Source: a virus
Direction: 5' to 3' (one strand)
DNA: 38,300 bases
Virus genome (UHGV): UHGV-0186551
In this document: positions 1 through 20,827 of the stretch, one piece after another
Numbering within the stretch: position 1 is the first letter of the stretch
How the letters are laid out: every line of letters starts with the position of its first letter
The notes under the pieces: model-generated
Databases searched by the model: none
Told to the model about the DNA's origin: nothing
What the model saw: the letters and a program-made list of their open reading frames with translations, nothing else
Position numbers and translations under genes: made by a program

Positions 1-14
1 TAGTATAAAAAAGC
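1..14. repeat. att core (attR copy), tagtataaaaaagc; window begins inside the core
   Basis: Identical to 37207..37220; is the reverse complement of the lambda core GCTTTTTTATACTAA (first base presumably just left of position 1). Confidence 0.85.
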
Positions 15-160
15 TGAACGTGAAACACTAAAAACCATTAATATCAATGCATTACAATAAATTTAGCTTAAAAAATAGACTATATAATACTGCAAAACGC
101 AACATATGCAGTCACTATGAATCAACTACTTAGATAGTATTAGTGACCTGTAACAGAGCA
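15..160. other. attR P-arm (Int arm-site/IHF/Xis binding region, phage side of attR)
   Basis: Sequence following the core recalls the lambda attP P-arm in reverse complement (recollection, not aligned); individual protein sites not mapped. Confidence 0.55.
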
Positions 161-201
161 TTAGCGCAAGGTGATTTTTGTCTTCTTGCGCTAATTTTTT
201 G
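161..201 (+). terminator. sib/tI-like hairpin with T-run (int retroregulation element in the free phage)
   Basis: ttagcgcaag ... cttgcgctaa inverted repeat followed by tttttt. Confidence 0.5.
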
Positions 202-290
202 TCAACATACTGGGTTATCTGAATTTACAGCCATGCTCAGTATCTCGATAAGCGCAGAGAAATGATGCAGTGGTGGGCGGACTGGCTTGA

Positions 291-314
291 TGAAAAGGTG
301 GAGTGAACCACCTT
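291..314 (-). terminator. Possible terminator hairpin downstream of the 218-aa gene
   Basis: aaggtgg/ccacctt stem with adjacent A-run on + (U-run on - transcript). Confidence 0.3.
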
Positions 315-422
315 AACCACTATCGAAGAGCACAAAACCTTGCAATCAAGTGCAAAGCTTTGTGTGTTATTTTTTATGGCTATATAAATTATATACTGCC
401 AGTGCTATCTAACATTTAAATA

Positions 423-1079
423 TTATGAACTATAATAAGTCCTAATCTTTACAGATGAAAGCATAATCTTCCAAGCTTGATCGCTACCCAACCACTCATC
501 GTTGGTTGGTTCATTATCACCAGATACTACATAAGTATCTGGCATATCAAAGTCTATATTGCAAAGGTCTTCTCCTTTGCGCTCCTTAAAAATAAGAAGA
601 TCTATTTTTGTTGTTGGGAATTTTTTATCCAAAACACTTCTCAGTTTATACACAGCATCTCGTTCTGCATTCAATCTAACGAGTAAAACACGTTCCGACT
701 CATTGATTTTCTCTATAAATCTTTTTCTTCTCGCCTTTATTTTTTTCATCATATTAAACAAGCAGACTTCAATACCTTGTTTTTCATAGTCATCAATAAG
801 AATATCGTGAATACTTCGAAATCCAGTCGCTGTATCTGTGATATCAATACAATTTTTAAATCTGCCATTAATTTTTATATTTTCAGGCAAGAAAAGGTGG
901 TCGCACCCCTTATTAATTATTTTTGTAACTTGAGGTAGTTTTTGAGAGGCAAACCAATCAAATGGTCCACTAAATGTCCTCAACCCAAATCGCTTTAACC
1001 TTCCTGCTGGTTGACATTTTTTACCAAGGCTTGCTATAAAATCATACTCTCCACAAGGAAGAAAAAGGCCTTTATTCAT
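423..1079 (-). CDS. Hypothetical protein, 218 aa; N-terminal motif SLGxxC...PFDW reminiscent of DUF1796 (putative papain-like fold); AT-rich accessory gene
   Basis: ORF track 423..1115; start moved to ATG at 1079 (MNKGLF...) which has an AGGAAA ribosome-binding site; AT-rich composition unlike the rest of the prophage. Confidence 0.7.
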   Translation of the reverse strand: MNKGLFLPCGEYDFIASLGKKCQPAGRLKRFGLRTFSGPFDWFASQKLPQVTKIINKGCDHLFLPENIKINGRFKNCIDITDTATGFRSIHDILIDDYEKQGIEVCLFNMMKKIKARRKRFIEKINESERVLLVRLNAERDAVYKLRSVLDKKFPTTKIDLLIFKERKGEDLCNIDFDMPDTYVVSGDNEPTNDEWLGSDQAWKIMLSSVKIRTYYSS

Positions 1080-1196
1080 ATGATTTTCCTTACATTTTAT
1101 GACGACAAAAATCATAACATTGCCTTATTAATCAGTCAAACAGTTAACAAATGCAAACAAACAAGTAAGCACATTGTTGATAATTTGTTTATTTTT

Positions 1197-1811
1197 ATGT
1201 TTTTGTTATCTATACCATTTTTTTCATTTGCTTCTGATACAAACAAAACGCCACCATATCGCATGAGGGAGTCGATGTTTGAGTTATTAAAGGAGCAAAG
1301 GGATATTGTTATGCTTGGCGATAGCATAACCGCGCGAGGAGAGTGGAATGAGCTTCTTCCTAGTTTATCTGTAGCAAATAGGGGCATTGGGGGAGATGAA
1401 GTTAAATTTATGAAAAGAAGGATTGATTCTATATTTTTATTAAAGCCCAAATATGTATTCATTATGGGCGGAACAAATGATTTCAGAAGAAAAAGAAGTG
1501 TTGATGATGTGGTTCGTGACTATAAGCATATAATAAAAAAACTACACAAACACAGAATTAATGTATTCATTCAGTCCACCCTTTACGTGTCAAGAGAAAG
1601 CAGGTTAAATGACAACATAAAAATATTAAAATTAAACAATGCAATAAATAACTATTGCTCTGTATCTAATTATTGTCGTTTCGTAGATCTTAACGTGCAC
1701 ATGGCAAAAGATAGAAAAATACTAGCTAAGTATAGCGATGATGGAGTCCATCTAAATGGTAATGGGTATTTAATGTGGGCGTCAATCATATACCCTTTAA
1801 TTAAAAAATAA
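1197..1811 (+). CDS. SGNH/GDSL-family hydrolase (esterase/lipase-like) with hydrophobic N-terminus, probably exported or membrane-anchored
   Basis: Motifs GDSIT, GIGGD, GGTNDF, DGVHLN in SGNH block order; N-terminal MFLLSIPFFSFA; start uncertain (ATG 1080, TTG 1185 or ATG 1197; track start 1011). Confidence 0.75.
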   Translation: MFLLSIPFFSFASDTNKTPPYRMRESMFELLKEQRDIVMLGDSITARGEWNELLPSLSVANRGIGGDEVKFMKRRIDSIFLLKPKYVFIMGGTNDFRRKRSVDDVVRDYKHIIKKLHKHRINVFIQSTLYVSRESRLNDNIKILKLNNAINNYCSVSNYCRFVDLNVHMAKDRKILAKYSDDGVHLNGNGYLMWASIIYPLIKK

Positions 1812-1817
1812 GAATAG

Positions 1818-1849
1818 TAAAAAACCATCTCATTATGAGGTGGTTTTTT
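1818..1849. terminator. Bidirectional rho-independent terminator between convergent hydrolase and tailspike genes
   Basis: Hairpin aaaaaccatctca / tgaggtggttttttt with A-run before and T-run after. Confidence 0.6.
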
Positions 1850-1930
1850 ATATAGAATAAAGCAATAGAGGTTTATTTTATTTGTTTATCATGGCTTAAT
1901 GCACTAGCACTTTAATTGAAAAAACTATAT

Positions 1931-4330
1931 TTATTTTAGTATCCATCCGGTATTTCCTGTTCCTGTTTTTTTTTGATACCAATCACCATTATAATCAATG
2001 TACATTGACCCCTTAGGTGCGGTCACAACACCCTCAGGTGAACCGGAGCCTCTATAAATTCCAAAGAGAGTTGTACCTCTTACTTTCTCGTATGCAAACA
2101 ACAAACCATCTGAAGCCCTTCTGATACGCAACGGTTCGTGCTCTGAGTCCGATGCAAATGTAGTGGTGCCGTTTGAATCTGTTTCCCTGGAAAAACTTCC
2201 ATCTGTTCTTGTTCCTTCAATGATCGAATTTGGGTAGTTTGGATCATCAGATGAATGTAACCTAATATAGGAACTATTTGATGCTGATACCCCCCTACCC
2301 CTTAAAATCAATCCCTTAAATGATGACGTAAATAGTGCCTGGATTGAGCCATAAACAGTGTTATCACTACCGTTTTGCTGATCGTATATTCTTAGTCTTG
2401 AGCTATTATCATACATAATAGCGTTGAAGTACTCACCAAGACGTTCGCTAAATGCAACAATATTAAAAGCATTGCGCCATCTAAATGATATATTTCGCCC
2501 GCTTTCTCCGGCATCTACACCTGCATTACTTGAAGCATTGGTTATGCCAGAATTAAGGTTCTGCTCATCGTTGTTACCAGTCGCTGGTCGTATAGAGTAA
2601 ATTGTCTTTTTCTCAAGAGAATAGCTACTTCCCCATCCATAATCTGTATCAGGACTCCAGTCTCCAGAATTTGCATCCTTGGTTGTTTCCACCCAATAAG
2701 AGCCATTTGATGGAGGAACACCAATTATTCCAGAAGTCTCAATAGATGATGCAGCCCATCTTCTTCCACGCCAGTTTACAATATTAGCTCCTGCCCTCCA
2801 TGTTTCTATGCAGCTTATAATTATTTCTTCGCCACGAATAGTTAAACCTTCCGGCTCGAATCTGGCTGGATTCCCAAGAGTTGGATGGTTAAGCAACCCA
2901 TCGCGCCCATATTGCGACCTTGCATCATCGATATCTAATTTTCTTAGTAAATTACCTGTTAAATCATATGTAAAGATATGATGCTTTCCAAAAGCATTAG
3001 TGCCTCCCTTAAGTATATGTATATATCTTCCATCAGACGCAATACCTTGTACAGAGTAAGCGCCTTCAGAAGGTGAGTCGCTCATTTCCCAAACAAACAT
3101 GGGGTTTGCTAATGTTTTATCTTCAAGTTTATCAATTGATATTTTATCGTATATAAATACAGTTCGTTTAGCGGCATCACTCTTTGGTGTATTAACCATT
3201 ATTAAAAGACGACCGTCAGAAGAAATGGCAATTCCTGCACGATTGTAATCTTGAAATGGGTGACCGCTACCAGTAATCCCCCATACATTATAACTTTTTA
3301 CGTCAGACTGAGTTGTTCCTGCCCCTCGCCAAGTTATTTTACTAAACCCTTTGCCTGCAGACTCCCCATCTTCACCTGAATTGGTTACACTTGATGTATA
3401 TAAATATACTTGACCATTCTCCACCATGGCAGAAAGATCAAATCCGTGCCCAAGGTTTAATTCTGGAGAATACGCAACATGGTTTACTACCCTTCCATCA
3501 TCATAAAGATTAAACTCAACAATACGAACTCTTTCTTTATCCGACCAGGTTGGCCCAACAGGCCGTTGTGTGACAAATAGTTTTTCAATGCCATTAACAC
3601 GGCAATATGCGATCCCCTGTAACGCATTTCTGGCATTAGGATAAATTTCTGTGTTTGTTTCTCCCTGAAAACCAAAAAAAGGTTCCATCATTTTTCTCTG
3701 CGCAAGTTTGTCAGTTTCAAGTAGACGAGAAACGGAAATAAGAGAGCCATTATCTGCAACAATCCTCCCAATACCTCGAGCAGAAGATACATCAACTTCG
3801 AGAGTATTTACTGCAAAATCGCCATCAGGAACAAACATTCTATAGCCTGCGTTAGAGAATGCCTCAGTAGCGTCAGTTATTCCATCACTGATAGCCCCCC
3901 AACCGCGAACATCTTTGTCATCACGCCATCGTGCAATCTGCAATTCGGGATATTTTTTAGCACCATCCGGGTCTTCTAACTGCTGCCGTAGCTGATCCGG
4001 GTCATACTTCAGCACATTAGGGAAATAGAACTGCTGAGTGCCATATGCATCATATACAGCCATAGAATGGCCTTGAACAGTTACGAATTTGGCAATCTGC
4101 CCGTTATATACCGGATATCCAGCAGCGTTAATGATGATTGGCTGCGAAACAGGAACATGAGAGCCGTCTTCGTTCTCTACATAAACCTGAATCTGGTTTT
4201 CTGGACTTACCGGGTCAGTGTCAATTTTTCCGATATAAATTTTGCCGTTGGCTACTGCTTTAAAAGAACGCGCCATAGTGAAGAGTTGCGAAGGCATACT
4301 CACTACAACATTGGCTGTAATGTCTGTCAT
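1931..4330 (-). CDS. Tailspike, 799 aa: P22-type N-terminal head-binding domain joined to a divergent receptor-binding domain
   Basis: First ~115 aa ([11 protein letters not shown]...[11 protein letters not shown]...LKYDPDQ) match P22 tailspike N-terminus from memory; remainder unrecognised. Confidence 0.9.
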
Positions 4331-4494
4331 TTAATTTTCTCCAGACGTAGCAATGCGGAACAAGATGCAACTTGCCCGGCATTGCATTAATGTAAGTTAT
4401 GATTTGTTAACTATGAGATGAGTCTATGCAAAAAGATCTGTTGAATATTGCGTTCTATATATTTGGTTTTTGCACATTTCTGGTGTTTGCAAAG

Positions 4495-6492
4495 CTATTC
4501 TGACAACGAATCAGACTTAGCCCCCTGCGTCAGAGCGTTAATTGCCTTTTGTGCCTGCTGCATTGCTTTCTCAAAGGCTGTTGATCCGCGTGGGGTGTTT
4601 GCCATTCTGAGCATTGCATTTCTGAATGGTTCGCTCTCATAGGCGCGAGTAAGAAGTCCGTAGCTTACTGCTGCGCCAGTTGTCGCCGGGTTCATTGCCG
4701 TCCCATACCCGATAATGAACGGGATGGTTTGCTGCCCTGTGGGTGTTGTTACTGCCGCTTTTGCTGCCTGCTGAGTGGACTGAAGGTAATTTTTCAATCC
4801 TTTCAGATAAGCAGCATCCTGCCCCTTAAATGTGATGCCAGTCTGGTTTTGCAGGATGTTAAGCTGCCGAAGGAACTGGTCAGGGGATCCGCCAGATTTC
4901 TCCATCGCCTTTCCAATGATGCCATTGCGCATTTGCGCCCTGCCAACACGACCAACTGAGTTATACAGCGTCTTAATTTCCGATTTGTTCTTGCTGAATA
5001 GCATGTTGTTGACAATTTCCGGTGTCAGGTCGCCTTTCATGAGAACATTCTTCAGCCTGGTATTCTTTAGTTTCGCCGCTTCGTCAGCGTAGACGGCATT
5101 GGCCTGCTGATATTTACGGAGAGTATCGTTGCCAAGATTATGACCAATGGCACCATTGATATCGTCGGTCATCGCCTTGTAAACGCGCTGAATGGCAGCA
5201 TCGGAACGGTTTGGTAACACTGGTCGCTCACCCTTCACGTCCATTCTGAACTGACTGCGCAGGTCGCTTAATTGCTTCAAATCCAGATTTACCGGACCAT
5301 CAGGGCCAGCATTGCGAACAAGCTCATCACGATATGACTGAAGTTTTGAAATTGTCTCGTTATCAGCCACCTTACCAAGCTTCTTCAGATTAGATATCTC
5401 AGTATCAATCTGCTGAATTGCTCGCGCAGGCTGGATATTGACTCCCGCCATTGCATTCTGAACCTGCTCAAGACGGTTCCCTGCAGCACGACGAATTCCT
5501 GATGTTTTCGCTTTAAGGCTGTCAATAACAACAGCTGGATCATACTCACCGAATTTATCAGCAAATCTCTGCACCAACTGGCTTCTCGCTTCCTGTTGCG
5601 TTGCTCTCATTCCGCTTGTGCCAGCCAGGGGGATATTTTCTGCTGTCGTTTGCGCCATTTTTCCGACGCGGGAAGTAGGCTGTAACAGGTCTGTGGTGTG
5701 CAGAGGCACTCCTTCACGCTCTGCAAATCTGATAGCTTGCTGCGCTTCTGGCGCAATAGCACCACGAACTCCACGATAAGCAGCACCTAATCCACGTCCG
5801 GCAGCGTTAATAGCACCGCCAGCCAGCACACCAACGCCCAAATCGGTGGCGAGTGCTTCCGCATCATCTTTCGCACTATTTGCAGCAAGTGATCCAACTG
5901 CGTTTTCTGCTAGAAGGCGAGTTGCCCCATGAGCAATTCGACCAGCAAGTGTTGGTGCCTGTGCTGCCGCTCTCTCAACGCCAGCAGGAGTGAGGTAAGG
6001 CAATGCTTCAGCAAATACCCTTCCCTCTGTCGTTTGTGGAGTCAGCGCGCCTTGCTGAAGGCCAAAGTCCTGCTCTAATCCCTGCGTTGTTACACGTGGC
6101 GCTGGTTGATATGTACCATCGCCAATGCCGAGTTTACCGCCAGCCCAAGCCGCCGCGCTTGTTACAGCATCGGCAACTGATGCAGGTATGTTTGCCACGT
6201 TCACGCCAGCCTGCACCAGTCCGCGACCAGTCTCTTTTACTGCTTCGCCAAGATCAGACATAAATCCACTTTGCTGTGGTTGTTGCTGTGCTACTGGTTG
6301 CTGTGTCTCCACTTGCTGCACATATGGCAATGGATAGGAAGCATAGAAAGCTTGCTTAGCCTGCTCTGCATTTTCTCCGGCTTGCGGGGCAACGACTTCA
6401 TTGAAGTATTGCTCCTGAGCCTGCGCTTTTTGTTCTGGTGCTAACGCCTGATACTGTGGAGAGGCGATAACATCTTTCCATGCTTTAGCCAT
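4495..6492 (-). CDS. Ejection/internal virion protein, P22 gp16-like
   Basis: 665-aa ORF in the gp16 position after gp20; Q/A-rich. Confidence 0.8.
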   Translation of the reverse strand: MAKAWKDVIASPQYQALAPEQKAQAQEQYFNEVVAPQAGENAEQAKQAFYASYPLPYVQQVETQQPVAQQQPQQSGFMSDLGEAVKETGRGLVQAGVNVANIPASVADAVTSAAAWAGGKLGIGDGTYQPAPRVTTQGLEQDFGLQQGALTPQTTEGRVFAEALPYLTPAGVERAAAQAPTLAGRIAHGATRLLAENAVGSLAANSAKDDAEALATDLGVGVLAGGAINAAGRGLGAAYRGVRGAIAPEAQQAIRFAEREGVPLHTTDLLQPTSRVGKMAQTTAENIPLAGTSGMRATQQEARSQLVQRFADKFGEYDPAVVIDSLKAKTSGIRRAAGNRLEQVQNAMAGVNIQPARAIQQIDTEISNLKKLGKVADNETISKLQSYRDELVRNAGPDGPVNLDLKQLSDLRSQFRMDVKGERPVLPNRSDAAIQRVYKAMTDDINGAIGHNLGNDTLRKYQQANAVYADEAAKLKNTRLKNVLMKGDLTPEIVNNMLFSKNKSEIKTLYNSVGRVGRAQMRNGIIGKAMEKSGGSPDQFLRQLNILQNQTGITFKGQDAAYLKGLKNYLQSTQQAAKAAVTTPTGQQTIPFIIGYGTAMNPATTGAAVSYGLLTRAYESEPFRNAMLRMANTPRGSTAFEKAMQQAQKAINALTQGAKSDSLSE

Positions 6493-16206: not shown

Positions 16207-17622
16207 TCAACCTACACCACAAGGAATTGAGTAACTGGAATAGTCGGGTTGCGCAGCCGACTCCGGGCAATGCATGCACATCATCAGCGCATCAGCCAGG
16301 TTAGGAGATGGAATGCCGAGCTTCTGCTTCATTTCGACCTTAGTCATAAGCTCCAGCTTCCCGTTGTTATTGAATTTGCGCTGAATCTGCGTCAGTTCTG
16401 CAAACAGCTTCTCCAGCATATTCTCGCCTATTGCTTCTTTGTCGAAGCTCAGCATGTCGTCGGGGTCTGCATACTCACCGTGGACAACCGCCCGATATGT
16501 CAGATACAGCCTGTCAGCCAGCGCGTAATAGAATTGCGCTCGCTTATTGCGGAACACATCACCAATAGTGCGAACGTTGTCGCCCTGTACGACTTCATCA
16601 GACCATGCTCCGGCCTGATACGGCGCATCTTCATCGAATGGCGATTCGCTGCCCTTGAACATCGTGGCGGTGATTTTCTTGCCGGAGAACGCTTCCGTTG
16701 TCTGTCTGCGTAGCCCTGCACCGACACCATCACCATCCCACAGGTAATGGTCAGCGCCGTCTTCAATCGCCAGCGAAGTAGCCCAGTCAGCGCCCTCGTT
16801 GATGTCCATCAGCAGACCTTCGGCAATGCGCTTAACTACCGAACCGTGGCGCGATGCGTAACCTTTAGCATCTGGACCTGTATCTGACGGGTCATGCGCA
16901 GAGACAACAGCGCCTTTCGCTTTCCATCCGAGTTTCTTGTGCGCATCGGTTGCGGCTTCAAGCCATTCACGTTTGATGATTGCCATATCACTTGCGCTTA
17001 CCGGCTCACCAAGCCAGATGTGACGATACAGTGTCGGATTTCTGCGTTTACACTCTTCCATCTCCAGACGGAGAACTTCAGGAAAATGCGGGTTGTCGGT
17101 GTAGTTCACCGTCAGCAGACAAATATCATCGGGAGGATTTACGACGAATCGCTGATAGGTATCGTCGAGGATGTTTTTCGGGTTGAAACTTACCCATATT
17201 TCAGAGAACGGCTTACGGATGGTTGGAATCAGGATATCCCACGATTCCTTCGTTACCGCTTCCGCTTCTTCCACCCAGCAGATATCAATGCCTTCGAGCG
17301 ATTTAATCTTCGTCGGGTTGTTTTTGATGCCGTAGAACATGAACTCAGCATTCGTTCCGAGATGACGAATCATTGAACGCTGAATTTCAAACTCAGCCGA
17401 ATATCCTTCACGCTCGATGGTATCTTCAAGTAACCTGATTACCGAATCGCTGATACTGTTTTGCAGTTCACGAGCGCAGAGAATACGCACTGGCTGCCGA
17501 CGCGCCGCTTCAACAAGCAGCCTCGCAATTGCCCATGACTTACCGCTACCTCGACCGCCTTTGGCGACTTTGTAGCGATGCGCCTCAATGAACGGTTCAA
17601 AGATAGGATTAATCGTGGTCAT
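16207..17622 (-). CDS. Terminase large subunit
   Basis: 471 aa; Walker A-like GGRGSGKS near N-terminus; position after TerS. Confidence 0.9.
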   Translation of the reverse strand: MTTINPIFEPFIEAHRYKVAKGGRGSGKSWAIARLLVEAARRQPVRILCARELQNSISDSVIRLLEDTIEREGYSAEFEIQRSMIRHLGTNAEFMFYGIKNNPTKIKSLEGIDICWVEEAEAVTKESWDILIPTIRKPFSEIWVSFNPKNILDDTYQRFVVNPPDDICLLTVNYTDNPHFPEVLRLEMEECKRRNPTLYRHIWLGEPVSASDMAIIKREWLEAATDAHKKLGWKAKGAVVSAHDPSDTGPDAKGYASRHGSVVKRIAEGLLMDINEGADWATSLAIEDGADHYLWDGDGVGAGLRRQTTEAFSGKKITATMFKGSESPFDEDAPYQAGAWSDEVVQGDNVRTIGDVFRNKRAQFYYALADRLYLTYRAVVHGEYADPDDMLSFDKEAIGENMLEKLFAELTQIQRKFNNNGKLELMTKVEMKQKLGIPSPNLADALMMCMHCPESAAQPDYSSYSIPCGVG

Positions 17623-18059
17623 TTTCCGAATAGAGTGCTCATCGGTGATGTTTCAATCTGAATTGCGCCGCCGTCTTTGCCTGTTAGCTCGTGATCAACC
17701 TTGTCGCGCCATTTATCCTTCTGTCGGTTCTTAAGCCAGAAGATGGCAGCGGTTGTATCAGGCGGGTAATACTTCTCAAGCGAAGTTTCGACAATTCTGT
17801 TTTCAATAACACGAATATCGATATCTGGAGCCACGAAGCCCATAGCGCGTTGATAAAGACGATCACTAACTTCTGCATCAGCGACGGCCTTACCCTTTTT
17901 TATGGACTCTAAAAACTCCGGATATTCCGATTTCCAATTGTTGATTGTTGCCTCGCTAACTTCAAAGAAGTCCGCGAGTTCGGCGTCTGTATAGCCCAGC
18001 AAGCACAGTTTGCGTGCCTGTTCGGCATACGCCTCTTGATACTTCGTTGGGCGCGCCAT
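17619..18059 (-). CDS. Terminase small subunit (headful type)
   Basis: 146 aa, helix-turn-helix-like N-terminus, immediately upstream of and overlapping TerL. Confidence 0.75.
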   Translation of the reverse strand: MARPTKYQEAYAEQARKLCLLGYTDAELADFFEVSEATINNWKSEYPEFLESIKKGKAVADAEVSDRLYQRAMGFVAPDIDIRVIENRIVETSLEKYYPPDTTAAIFWLKNRQKDKWRDKVDHELTGKDGGAIQIETSPMSTLFGK

Positions 18060-18061
18060 GT

Positions 18062-18304
18062 TTATGCTCCGGTAGTGAACAGGTCTAACGCTTCCTTCGA
18101 TTTACGCACCGCTTCGATAGTGCGGGTCGTGATATCTGAATTAGCGCCGCCTGACTGGAAGTGAATTTTGAATAGCTCAAGCTTCAGTTCGTCAGTGCCA
18201 ATGAACTGAAATGCTTCCTCTGCGGCTGCGTTCTGGTTCATGACCAGCTTGTAAATCTCTAACTGGAATTTCTGTTCTTCAGTCATGGGAATAATCTCTG
18301 CCAT
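18062..18304 (-). CDS. Hypothetical protein, 80 aa
   Basis: ATG-initiated ORF directly upstream of TerS. Confidence 0.6.
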   Translation of the reverse strand: MAEIIPMTEEQKFQLEIYKLVMNQNAAAEEAFQFIGTDELKLELFKIHFQSGGANSDITTRTIEAVRKSKEALDLFTTGA

Positions 18305-18656
18305 TGTTGGCTCCGTTTATCCGTTAAAAGGGATATCAGTTAAGTTATCCCGTGTAGGGTATAAGCCATTGTCGAGACCACTCATTGAATGGTCTCTGCA
18401 ATAACCGATGTCTTTCCATCAGTCCGCCACCACAAAGAATCTTTTTTGCCATCAGGCAAGAGGTTCATCTTTCAGTGGCTGCCAGTGTTATTTCCCCACT
18501 TTCTGGCTTGGTTTGCTTCGTGGTACTGCCGCAACTGGTGGTGCACAGACTTAGTTAAATCTGTTCTCGCCTGAACTATCTTTTACATACCCGGATTGTG
18601 GGGATGTAAATCACGGTTTCATTATCAAGCCCACCCGTAGATGGGCTTTGTAATGG

Positions 18657-18914
18657 CTACTTCGCTTTTGCTTCCGCTCGCTTACGCCGGCGCTCTTCTT
18701 TCCTCTCGGCTTTTGCCATGTCCACGAATGCCTGCATGATCGAGTTCCGCATCATGTAGCTAACAAAGTGATGATTGACACAGCCGTTGAGGCGCAGCTG
18801 CTCGCCAAACTCATCCACCGAGGCCAATGCTTCCATCATGCCCTTCTCGCCTTTCATGAACTCTGAGAAGTCGCGCCCCGCTCTGGAGGCGCATTCAATG
18901 ACACGATCACTCAT
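18657..18914 (-). CDS. Hypothetical protein, 85 aa, basic C-terminal tail; translationally coupled to the KilA-N gene
   Basis: Start overlaps the KilA-N stop by 4 nt. Confidence 0.65.
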   Translation of the reverse strand: MSDRVIECASRAGRDFSEFMKGEKGMMEALASVDEFGEQLRLNGCVNHHFVSYMMRNSIMQAFVDMAKAERKEERRRKRAEAKAK

Positions 18915-19408
18915 CCCGGAAGCCCGGGGATCGTTATCTGCAGCTGGTTAGCCAGGGAGTTAATCTCAGCGACCAACACTGGCTTCGTATAGCGCCATGC
19001 CGCCAGCCCTTGTCCACAGAAGCTCGCCATATCTTTTTTCTGATCAAACTCATGACACTTCATATTGAGCTGCGCACTTAAGCTGTTGCGATGCTGAAGT
19101 TCTCCGGTGAAGTAGTCATCCAGGACTTTATAGGCTGCATATTTAAATCCGGGGTTTAGCCATGCTGCATAATCATAAGCAACAAACTTCCCGCCATATG
19201 TTCCACCGTGTACACCGCGCTCAGTAAAAACCACAGATTCGTGGTTTTTCTCCAGCTCGGCTAAGAACTCTTTGGTCTGCTTGTTTCGCAGGTAGTGGTA
19301 CGGAGATTCAGATTCACTTTTACCACTGGCTTTCCACATATCAGTGAGGCAGATCATGCCATCTTCACCGATACGAATTGGTTGATTGAAGAGGGTTAAT
19401 GATTTCAT
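18911..19408 (-). CDS. KilA-N domain protein, 165 aa
   Basis: IRIGEDGMICLTDMWKASGK...LRNKQTKEFLAELEK...AYDYAAWLNPGFKYAAYKVLDDY matches the KilA-N pattern. Confidence 0.7.
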   Translation of the reverse strand: MKSLTLFNQPIRIGEDGMICLTDMWKASGKSESESPYHYLRNKQTKEFLAELEKNHESVVFTERGVHGGTYGGKFVAYDYAAWLNPGFKYAAYKVLDDYFTGELQHRNSLSAQLNMKCHEFDQKKDMASFCGQGLAAWRYTKPVLVAEINSLANQLQITIPGLPG

Positions 19409-19521
19409 AGCGTGTACCTACTCTTTGAAATGAACCTTTGCCGCACAGGAAACCAGCCCACCGAGGCTCGCCAGCACTAACTGGTATCCTCAAAGGCCCA
19501 TTCCAAAGGGGCAGGTTCGGT

Positions 19522-19578
19522 ATAAAAAACATGCGTTGCGGTACGCATTTATTGCAAAAAGCCCCGCATCGCGAGGCT
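19522..19578 (-). terminator. Tandem rho-independent terminators downstream of Rz
   Basis: Two hairpins (gcctcgcgatgcggggc and atgcgtaccgcaacgcat on the - transcript), each followed by a U-run. Confidence 0.55.
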
Positions 19579-19609
19579 CATTAAATTGACTTTGTGATTT
19601 GCAAAAAAA

Positions 19610-20047
19610 TTATTTCAGGCATTGCGTCCTGATGTACTCCTGCAGGTAGTTAACCTGCGCGGTTATCCTGTCGATTCCGCTTCGTAGACGGTAATAATTG
19701 AGTTCAGCATCTGCTGTAAGTCTTGGGCTTTCTCCATCGCCCATGCTGCTGGCTCCGGTCGTTGACTTTGCACAGGTGGCGGCGACTTGCAGGCGCTTAC
19801 GCCCAGCAGAAACATCAGCACGGAGGCTTTCGATAGTCGCGTTAGCATCAGCAAGCTCCTTTGTGTATCTGGCGTCAAGTTCTGCTACATCACGTTGACG
19901 CTTCTGCATGTCAGCGATTGTGGATGTGGCCTTATCGCGCTGCTCTTTGTAGGCGATTGCATTATCACGGTAATGATTAACAGCCCATGACAGGCAGACG
20001 ATGATGCAGATAATCAGAGCGGAGATAATCGCGGTTAATCTGCTCAT
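19610..20047 (-). CDS. Rz: Spanin inner-membrane subunit Rz
   Basis: N-terminus [28 protein letters not shown] recalled from lambda Rz; overlaps R stop. Confidence 0.9.
19663..19848 (-). CDS. Rz1: Spanin outer-membrane lipoprotein Rz1, embedded in Rz in the +1 frame
   Basis: Lipobox LLGVSAC and Pro-rich region; start uncertain (ATG at 19848 or 19815). Confidence 0.6.
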
Positions 20048-20520
20048 ACCTCAATCTCTCTGACCGTTCCGCCCACTTCTTTGAATTTTGCAATCAGGCT
20101 GTCAGCCTTATGCTCGAACTGACCATAACCAGCGCCCGGCAGTGAAGCCCAGATATTGCTGCAACGGTCGATAGCCTGACGGATATCACCGCGATCAATC
20201 ATCGGCAAAGCGCCACGCTCCTTAATCTGCTGCAGTGCCACAGCGTCCTGACTTTTGGGAGAGAAGTCTTTCAGGCCAAGTTGCTTGCGGTAGGCATCCC
20301 ACCAACGGGAAAGAAGCTGGTAACGTCCGGCTGCTGTTGATTTGAGTTTTGGGTTTAGCGTGACAAGTTTGCGAGGGTGATCTGAGTAATCAGTGAATAG
20401 CTCTCCGCCAACAATGACGTCATAACCATGATTTCTGGTTTTCTGTCGTCCGTTATCAGTTCCCTCTGACCACGCCAGCATATCGAGGAACGCCTTACGT
20501 TGATTATTGATTTCCACCAT
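20044..20520 (-). CDS. R: Endolysin R (lambda-type lytic transglycosylase)
   Basis: 158 aa, [26 protein letters not shown]... recalled as lambda R. Confidence 0.95.
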
Positions 20521-20827
20521 CTTCTACTCCGGCTTTTTTAGCAGCGAAGCGTTTGATAAGCGAACCAATCGAGTCAGTACCGATGTAGCCGATGAACACG
20601 CTCGTTATATAAGCGAGATTGCTACTTAGTCCGGCGAAGTCGAGAAGGTCACGAATGAACCAGGCGATAATGGCGCACATCGTTGCGTCGATTACTGTTT
20701 TTGTAAACGCACCGCCATTATATCTGCCGCGAAGGTACGCCATTGCAAACGCAAGGATTGCCCCGATGCCTTGTTCCTTTGCCGCGAGAATGGCGGCTAA
20801 CAGGTCATGTTTTTCTGGCATCTTCAT
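20504..20827 (-). CDS. S: Holin S
   Basis: 107 aa, [20 protein letters not shown]... with dual-start Met1/Met3, recalled as lambda S. Confidence 0.95.

Follow-up and report, generated by a model that had tools for sequence, protein, structure and literature searches.

The virus genome UHGV-0186551 (38,300 nt; "the window" below means this whole stretch of DNA) is a mosaic P22-like (Lederbergvirus; HK620/CUS-3/Kapi1-like) Escherichia coli phage genome with its late genes on the minus strand. Between the lysis genes (holin, endolysin and Rz/Rz1; 19610..20827) and the DUF2560 and terminase genes (16207..18304) it carries two overlapping genes, which we identified as hkbK and hkbL of phage HK620 (94.9% nucleotide identity), behind an intrinsic terminator and a structured RNA leader. 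A preliminary description of this stretch had placed a 165-aa protein, whose stop overlaps the start of an 85-aa protein, between the lysis and packaging genes, and both the position and the shared ATGA on the minus strand were borne out. The two genes had been annotated before and are common; the new finding is that the terminator and the leader, whose fold is supported by covariation, form a portable unit shared by interchangeable cargo genes. From 5' to 3', the cassette consists of the intrinsic terminator, a two-hairpin leader, a gene for a DNA-binding protein of the Bro network (hkbK), a coupled gene for a small, helical, basic-tailed protein (hkbL) and a 3' stem-loop, with 201 nt separating Rz from hkbK and 352 nt separating hkbL from the DUF2560 gene.

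The same two genes, with the ATGA overlap and the Rz-to-packaging position, occur in HK620, in the Stx2 phage 1717 (gp49/gp50) and in phage 2851 (kilA), at 94.9–97% nucleotide identity; the HK620 pair differs from that of the window in nothing essential, apart from the type of its leader and second hairpin. Besides the Stx-converting phages 1717 and 2851, the pair follows Rz in ECP1, Dewey and Salmonella phages, and it was found in 525/5426 complete E. coli genomes (~10%). A search of the literature returned no experimental study of hkbK or hkbL. Copies of the E. coli-type region that are 96–98% identical were also seen in a 'Candidatus Nanosynbacter' metagenome-assembled contig (locus L014 of our collection) and in the Actinobacillus phage pPE4 (PP818812.1); because these near-identical copies are assigned to unrelated hosts, contamination or mis-binning is likely.

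A conserved leader hairpin precedes hkbK

The 122 nt preceding the hkbK start codon fold into a long hairpin (minimum free energy −48.7 kcal/mol, z = −3.35), whose basal helix contains the purine-rich ribosome-binding tract of hkbK. A covariance model of this leader (R1), built from 13 diverged versions with the window sequence in the seed, matched the window once (19406..19519, 92.5 bits) and found 102 copies in 99 related loci, as well as the leader of ST64B; independent members (ST64B and loci L015, L052, L064 and L070) scored 55–71 bits. Each of the 13 diverged versions folds into a long hairpin. Eleven of them share one consensus hairpin, which has a conserved asymmetric internal loop (CUGUGNG...); the HK97 and RAH1 leaders take a different fold at minimum energy, with the consensus helices still possible. 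In most of the 13 variants, the purine tract ahead of the ATG forms part of the basal helix. Across 31 distinct sequences, and by a generous count, 93.1% of cells were paired and compensatory changes occurred at 11/21 pairs; shifting the pairing partner by one column reduced leader pairing to 55%. Compensatory changes are also seen in the raw sequence, as CCTTTG/CAAAGG, CCGTTG/CAACGG and GCCTG/CAGGC.

The window leader is 94.9% identical to that of P22 rha (BLAST) and is also related to the ES18 gp79 leader, and the leader of HK620 hkbK is 100% identical to that of phi80 rha. Together with the second hairpin, the window leader is of the Stx/P22 type, not the HK620/phi80 type. An 89-nt RNA named P22F, listed in a 2026 study of small RNAs during P22 infection (PMC13397905), has exactly the sequence of this leader hairpin and ends 6 nt before the rha ATG. 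P22F begins within the 5' arm, ~20 nt past any −10-like motif, and this start fits processing rather than initiation. In the P22 locus (L008, 1845..1914), the RefSeq rha coding sequence starts at a GTG inside the leader hairpin and yields 201 aa; the ATG at the position shared with the other cargo genes gives 178 aa, and from this alignment of start sites the first 23 annotated residues of P22 Rha are probably not translated.

Against Rfam, including C4 and isrK, the leader was unmatched, every match lying far below the gathering score. Sub-threshold matches to STnc470 (17 bits) and isrJ (18.5 bits) at window positions 19485..19625 (minus strand) fell on the 3' end of Rz and the terminator, and these, like a further one to rimP, all lay off the leader. 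The STnc470 and isrJ matches are most likely due to chance; a small RNA derived from the 3' untranslated region and ending at the Rz terminator is possible.

Table 1. Features at the hkbK-hkbL locus of the window, listed in the direction of late transcription.
Feature	Position	Strand	Description
Holin gene	20504..20827	-	Late region, upstream of the pair
Endolysin gene	20044..20520	-	Late region, upstream of the pair
Rz	19610..20047	-	Late region; Rz/Rz1, upstream of the pair
Terminator 1	19556..19579	-	Intrinsic, directly after Rz; 9-bp GC-rich stem, GAU loop, U5 (fold)
Short hairpin	19523..19548 (stem 19531..19548)	-	ATGCGT-ACCGCA-ACGCAT, then U6 (terminator scan)
Leader RNA	19409..19519	-	Long hairpin of ~110 nt ending at the hkbK start codon (fold, covariance model R1)
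hkbK	18911..19408	-	165 aa; KilA-N + ORF11CD3 protein of the Bro network
hkbL	18657..18914	-	85 aa; three helices, basic C-terminal helix; start overlaps hkbK stop (ATGA)
Downstream stem-loop	18620..18655	-	Two-tier, directly after hkbL stop; fold z = −3.5; no U-run
Conserved non-coding stretch	18346..18531	-	3' cargo boundary; 89% identical to the region after P22 rha (blastn)
DUF2560 gene	18062..18304	-	Late region, downstream of the pair
Small terminase gene	17619..18059	-	Late region, downstream of the pair
Large terminase gene	16207..17622	-	Late region, downstream of the pair

Terminators and hairpins around the pair

Terminator 1 is kept after Rz in HK620, HK97, Stx2-1717, Dewey, P22, ES18 and phi80, and the ES18 and phi80 records mark it as a terminator; a terminator of the same layout precedes the leader also where the cassette sits among tail genes. 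The short hairpin that follows is the local variant of a conserved GCGC(A)-N6-7-(T)GCGC element between the terminator and the long hairpin, and across 21 variants it is kept despite changes in its stem (for example AGCGCA/TGCGCT in RothD and GCGCTT/AAGCGT in L052). Both of the hairpin/U-run elements described earlier upstream of the pair (19522..19578) were recovered, the first by fold and conservation and the second by the terminator scan, the U6 of the latter being a local feature, as the U-run is missing in most relatives. The GCGCA-N5-6-GCGCA pattern was also considered as a protein-binding direct repeat or a Q-binding element, and this was set aside for the hairpin because GCGC is self-complementary and the window, RothD and L052 keep the pairing as the sequence changes; the GCGCA motif is also common to phages with different Q types. 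An IHF site was likewise rejected: motifs containing ATCAA follow the short hairpin in several variants, and none fits the full WATCAANNNNTTR consensus.

On the other side of the pair, the two-tier stem-loop follows hkbL in almost every locus, and L017, L052 and L006 have compensatory variants of it; it belongs to the cargo and travels with hkbL from locus to locus. The hairpin that had been noted near 18633..18652 is in this sense real and conserved, and what does not hold is its role as a terminator: it has no U-run and is therefore not a canonical intrinsic terminator. The region as a whole contains 8 terminator-like sites, as compared with 3.4 +/- 2.1 in shuffled sequences, and conservation is a stronger argument than this raw count.

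Interchangeable genes behind the same terminator and leader

In 81 of the 96 places examined, the pair lies directly after the Rz homologue, with downstream neighbours that vary (DUF2560 and P22-type terminase genes, HNH and HK97-type packaging genes, and others). It sits between the major tail gene and the tape measure gene in Klebsiella phage RAH1, and between the tape measure and Dit genes in a prophage of Enterobacter asburiae, and at both of these tail-gene sites the upstream terminator and leader accompany it. Equivalent units occupy the slot after Rz in related phages, where hkbK-hkbL, rha, gp73-type or HNH genes are found; P22, phi80 and the Stx2a phages carry a rha or rha-type gene there, behind the same leader.

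The genes that follow the terminator and leader encode pRha+ORF11CD3 proteins (in P22, phi80, ES18, a Hafnia phage and Stx2a phages), KilA-N+ORF11CD3 proteins (in the window and as sb54 of ST64B), KilA-N+P63C proteins, P22_AR_N+ORF11CD3 proteins, HNH_3 endonucleases with or without AP2, a GIY-YIG protein in epsilon34 and, elsewhere, a 54-aa open reading frame (ORF). Judged by its domains, all of the domain-assigned cargo consists of predicted DNA-binding or DNA-cutting proteins. Second copies of the terminator and leader were also observed (L052, 1560..1672; L061, 478..592; L064, 1119..1226; L090, 1021..1128; L070, 5130..5223), located ~2 kb upstream or 1 kb downstream of the hkbK copy in the same phage, and preceding P22_AR_N+ORF11CD3 genes, HNH_3+AP2 endonuclease genes or the 54-aa ORF.

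The cargo is exchanged between fixed non-coding flanks, of which the 5' boundary is the start codon and the 3' boundary lies ~125 nt after the hkbL stop. Beyond it, the conserved non-coding stretch (Table 1) runs on the minus strand into an orf25-like start (ATGAGTGGTCTCGACAATGG...); the corresponding region after P22 rha yields a 204-nt small RNA, P22G (PMC13397905). Stretches of this type are deleted in many related loci, in a manner that looks like recombination between GATAATG repeats. In Dewey (L001, 2056..2870) and L017 (2572..3243), an HNH endonuclease gene stands between the leader and the KilA-N gene, and ~35 nt of the 3' end of the leader (CAGGCTCACTTTCTAAAAGGTAAA...ATG) are duplicated before the KilA-N gene; the arrangement of these sequences looks like homing or recombination into the leader.

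HkbK is a KilA-N protein with a Rha-type C-terminal domain

The earlier KilA-N assignment of the 165-aa protein was confirmed by profile search, well above the Pfam cutoff (PF04383; 57.6 bits versus 23.8; residues 9–101), and HkbK shares the APSES-like DNA-binding fold of KilA-N proteins. C-terminal to this Bro-network N-domain, residues 109–161 match ORF11CD3 (PF10549; 50.5 bits versus a cutoff of 25), a domain named after orf11 of Pseudomonas phage D3. The D3 protein aligns with residues 9–160 of HkbK at 27% identity, and the ORF11CD3 domains of HkbK and P22 Rha are 35% identical. Profile searches found no pRha domain (PF09669, Phage_pRha) in HkbK and no ANT/KilAC or P22_AR domain in HkbK or HkbL, and a sequence search of the PDB with HkbK returned no relatives.

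HkbL follows Bro-network proteins of different domain composition

For the 85-aa partner, the profile search succeeded in part, giving an assignment to phrog_875 and no family in Pfam or NCBIfam. HkbL is under purifying selection, with a ratio of nonsynonymous to synonymous substitution rates (dN/dS) of 0.05–0.28 versus diverged homologues, and its AlphaFold 2 (AF2) model is of high confidence (predicted local distance difference test, pLDDT, 93); on these two grounds we count the 85-aa ORF as a real gene. The model has three helices, the last one long and basic, and this helix together with the C-terminus KEERRRKRAEAKAK agrees with the basic tail described earlier. The family is narrow: it has 138 clusters at 90% identity, and among 1.84 billion proteins only 21 representatives were found at 50% identity; all named sources among the matches listed are Enterobacterales, mainly Enterobacteriaceae. 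Fold searches of the PDB and BFVD gave nothing below E = 0.1 and returned generic helical bundles only. The close family shows no variation at C8, C45 and N47 and almost none at H48 and H49, these residues lying at the ends of helices 1, 2 and 3; from their pattern one may speculate that C8, C45, H48 and H49 form a zinc or other metal site, an idea weakened by the loss of C8 in distant homologues.

The gene upstream of hkbL mostly encodes a KilA-N+ORF11CD3 protein (94 loci), in 81/94 of these the 165-aa form with the ATGA overlap, a geometry that fits translational coupling; the bases before the hkbL start have no strong sequence resembling a Shine-Dalgarno motif (AGGAG), by eye. A KilA-N+P63C protein, whose KilA-N domain is 23% identical to that of HkbK, precedes hkbL in HK97, HK022, mEp234 and some other enterobacterial genomes, and a pRha+ANT protein precedes the HkbL homologue of a Rouxiella prophage, inside an Arc/antirepressor (immI-like) operon. 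The three partner types are all Bro-network proteins and have no domain in common; this picture of HkbL, as a protein that follows members of the network irrespective of their domains, is new. The R1 leader is present in every locus examined except that of Rouxiella (L012), the only HkbL locus without it. This Rouxiella sp. chromosomal locus (1..5300) contains two tandem Arc-headed operons (Bro-N, Bro-N+P22_AR_C, pRha+ANT), with the HkbL homologue at the end.

Two distant HkbL homologues (P0133 and P0135) have a ~60-residue HkbL-like domain fused N-terminally to T5orf172/MUG113, of the GIY-YIG superfamily (hhalign probability 96%), a domain that itself belongs to the Bro network; PHROG 4284 (profile length 171) possibly represents this family of fusions as well. 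The only natural HkbK-HkbL fusion found (P0001) is a frameshift product with ~25 residues of HkbK.

The cassette has no recognisable promoter of its own

A consensus scan of the minus strand from Rz to hkbK found no sigma-70 promoter. When 21 distinct terminator-to-leader regions were scanned with a position weight matrix (PWM), the best site scored below the shuffle mean in 21/21, a shortfall (window 19520..19600 included) that suggests avoidance of promoter-like sequence in the spacer. A promoter at the short hairpin, where TTTCAC/GTAAAC and TATnAA-like motifs are seen by eye, was considered and dropped, because of these scores and because the top-scoring sites lay at inconsistent positions. 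The GC content of the unit (0.46–0.55) is in the range of the flanking genes, with no anomaly.

What defines a moron is its own promoter, a terminator behind it and, in many cases, a deviant composition, and the preliminary description had read the locus as such a promoter-gene-terminator unit. Part of this stands: the pair is an accessory, portable module that close relatives carry, lack or have replaced at this position, and in this it resembles classical morons (HK97 gp15, lambda bor and lom), which are likewise accessory DNA among conserved late genes and are absent or replaced in some relatives. Their other properties, namely an own promoter, a downstream U-run terminator and deviant GC, were not found for hkbK-hkbL, in which the U-run terminators lie upstream and the presumed promoter space is taken up by the conserved structured leader. 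This arrangement suggests that the pair is expressed within the late operon, under Q antitermination.

An autonomous moron could still be imagined, in which a weak or regulated promoter just after the terminator drives transcription in the lysogen and the products act in exclusion or abortive-infection defence. In its favour, the cassette is portable and takes its terminator with it, and some variants have TATnAA-like and TTTCAC-like motifs beside the short hairpin. A KilA-N-like domain is moreover found in the prophage abortive-infection protein BstA, Rha aborts phage growth under some host conditions, and PADLOC gave a weak match of HkbK to the candidate system PDC-S22 (32 bits, over ~30 residues of the KilA-N domain). 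We nevertheless regard this explanation as unlikely: beyond the promoter scans and the ordinary GC content, all loci examined have the cassette on the strand of the late genes, which in the Rouxiella immI-like locus holds for the entire operon, and the same leader precedes homing-type nucleases, which are unlikely to be lysogen-expressed. Indirectly, the ST64B locus, with its leader and KilA-N-ORF11CD3 gene, is not among the lysogen-expressed accessory loci in the accessible part of a prophage transcriptome study. Neither protein matches BstA or another defence model beyond the domain; PADLOC returned nothing for HkbL, and HkbK has no similarity to BstA beyond the domain class. BstA is prophage-borne and has a KilA-N-class N-terminal domain, like HkbK, but it is ~307 aa long, has a distinct C-terminal domain, lies beside a repressor gene and is co-transcribed with it in lysogens, none of which applies to HkbK. 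The evidence does not support an autonomous defence moron, and for the preliminary description the value of the present analysis is mainly corrective.

Discussion

The explanation we favour, at a confidence that stops a little short of even, is that the window carries the hkbK-hkbL cargo version of a late-operon "rha slot" cassette of enterobacterial lambdoid phages, which is kept silent by its terminator and leader. The cassette would have no promoter of its own and would be transcribed only when Q-modified RNA polymerase from the late promoter passes the terminator. The leader, with its long hairpin burying the ribosome-binding site, would then hold translation low, or else processing of the leader would release translation. 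Terminator and leader would thereby act as a double safety catch that keeps a potentially harmful DNA-binding protein silent in the lysogen and scarce in lytic growth, and restraint of this kind on harmful cargo would also explain the homing-type nucleases behind the same leader. Because HkbK and Rha share the slot, the leader and the ORF11CD3 domain, HkbK may be the functional counterpart of Rha, and a Rha-like activity, by analogy, is the most economical guess. HkbL would be made together with HkbK by coupling and act as its cofactor or moderator.

Among known systems, rha of phi80 and P22 shares with the window pair the slot after Rz, the terminator, the leader (94.9–100%) and the C-terminal ORF11CD3 domain, and both are dispensable genes of the late region; rha differs in having an N-terminal pRha rather than KilA-N domain and no HkbL after it. 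When deregulated in hosts that lack IHF, the dispensable late protein Rha inhibits DNA synthesis and phage growth (PMC4936722; phi80, P22 and ES18 records), and this IHF-dependent inhibition is documented for Rha only. HK97 gp73 and mEp234 gp58 (KilA-N + P63C) occupy the same slot behind a leader of the same family (85 bits with R1) and have an HkbL homologue directly downstream, but differ from HkbK in their divergent KilA-N domain, their P63C C-terminus and a 2-nt gap instead of the overlap. Structured leaders that are processed to a stable small RNA and restrain a potentially toxic Bro-network or anti-regulator gene are found in c4-icd-ant of P1/P7, CI-eta(kil) of P4 and IsrK-AntQ of Gifsy-1, and P22F has been likened to such c4/CI/IsrK-type leader RNAs by its authors (PMC13397905) and in PMC10111431. 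The window leader differs from C4 and isrK in having no Rfam match and in that the ribosome-binding site is paired within the same hairpin, in cis.

Several points weigh against the safety-catch reading. The alignment used for the covariation counts was fitted by the model, and its sequences are related, so that the counts lean towards structure; P22F comes from a single small-RNA study. The argument for expression from the late operon only is that no sigma-70 promoter could be recognised, and the scan would overlook promoters that are weak, depend on an activator or use an alternative sigma factor. The upstream terminator accompanies the cassette even among tail genes, and might just as well be the point at which an autonomous unit begins. 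The N-terminal domain of HkbK differs from that of Rha, and the Rha phenotype may not transfer. Finally, the partners of HkbL (KilA-N+ORF11CD3, KilA-N+P63C and pRha+ANT) have no domain in common, which disfavours a simple domain-specific partner model.

A different role, as an antirepressor-type cross-talk factor, is a rather unlikely alternative. HkbK, with HkbL, would here be made on induction and inactivate the repressors of other prophages or satellites, or would regulate late transcription. The Bro-network architecture is compatible with this, relatives carry antirepressor annotations, gene regulation is frequent among Bro-network proteins (CapR is one example), and the Rouxiella HkbL homologue ends an Arc-controlled operon (Bro-N/P22_AR_C, pRha+ANT) laid out like P22 immI. 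However, the labels on the relatives are annotations and not experiments, HkbK is without an ANT/KilAC or P22_AR domain, hkbK-hkbL shows no LexA or Arc/Mnt-type control, and late lytic expression would come too late for the phage's own induction.

Less probable still is a toxin-moderator pair, akin to a reversed type II toxin-antitoxin or an abortive-infection module, in which a coupled HkbL neutralises or doses a toxic DNA-binding HkbK: the overlapping layout, the strong co-occurrence of the two genes, the several layers of expression restraint and the lethality reported for relatives (the P1 kilA record and a phi80 rha note) agree with it, but the more distant KilA-N-ORF11CD3 proteins (sb54 of ST64B and orf11 of D3) and the Rha proteins occur without HkbL, the partners of HkbL share no domain, and neither the promoter and operator typical of autoregulated toxin-antitoxin loci nor a toxin-antitoxin or defence profile match was found. 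We give an equally low probability to largely selfish cargo, with the terminator and leader as a recombination or homing hotspot and genes (nucleases and nuclease-related Bro-network proteins) that are maintained by being mobile themselves while hardly benefiting the phage. Although the cargo boundaries fall exactly at the conserved non-coding flanks (the start codon and the P22G-like region), HNH and GIY-YIG genes stand behind the same leader, HNH insertion in Dewey and L017 is accompanied by a duplicated leader 3' end and the literature ties the Bro network to homing endonucleases, hkbL is under strong purifying selection, the pair is ~95–100% identical across the ~10% of E. coli genomes that carry it, and the compensatory changes that keep the leader structure imply that the leader functions as RNA and not only as a DNA recombination site.

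Returning to the cassette held silent by its terminator and leader, this reading can be taken further, as a possibility that we put forward tentatively. The terminator and two-hairpin, P22F-type leader may be an undescribed and widespread cis-regulatory RNA of Enterobacterales temperate phages, serving both as a portable safety catch and as a landing pad where harmful cargo that binds or cuts DNA is brought in by recombination. Expression of this cargo would be confined to late transcripts made under Q antitermination, and processing of the hairpin would free its translation; HkbL, for its part, would be a new Bro-network module that doses or directs its partners.

The lysis-to-packaging slot of lambdoid phages, including the Shiga-toxin phages, is a long-known site of accessory genes. 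One leader and terminator shared across very different cargo turns what were scattered "hypothetical proteins" into a single testable regulatory unit, and this unit offers a handle on how phages silence harmful DNA-binding proteins and nucleases in lysogens. HkbL is now defined as a small, strongly conserved family, and provides a lead into the poorly understood Bro/KilA/Rha network.

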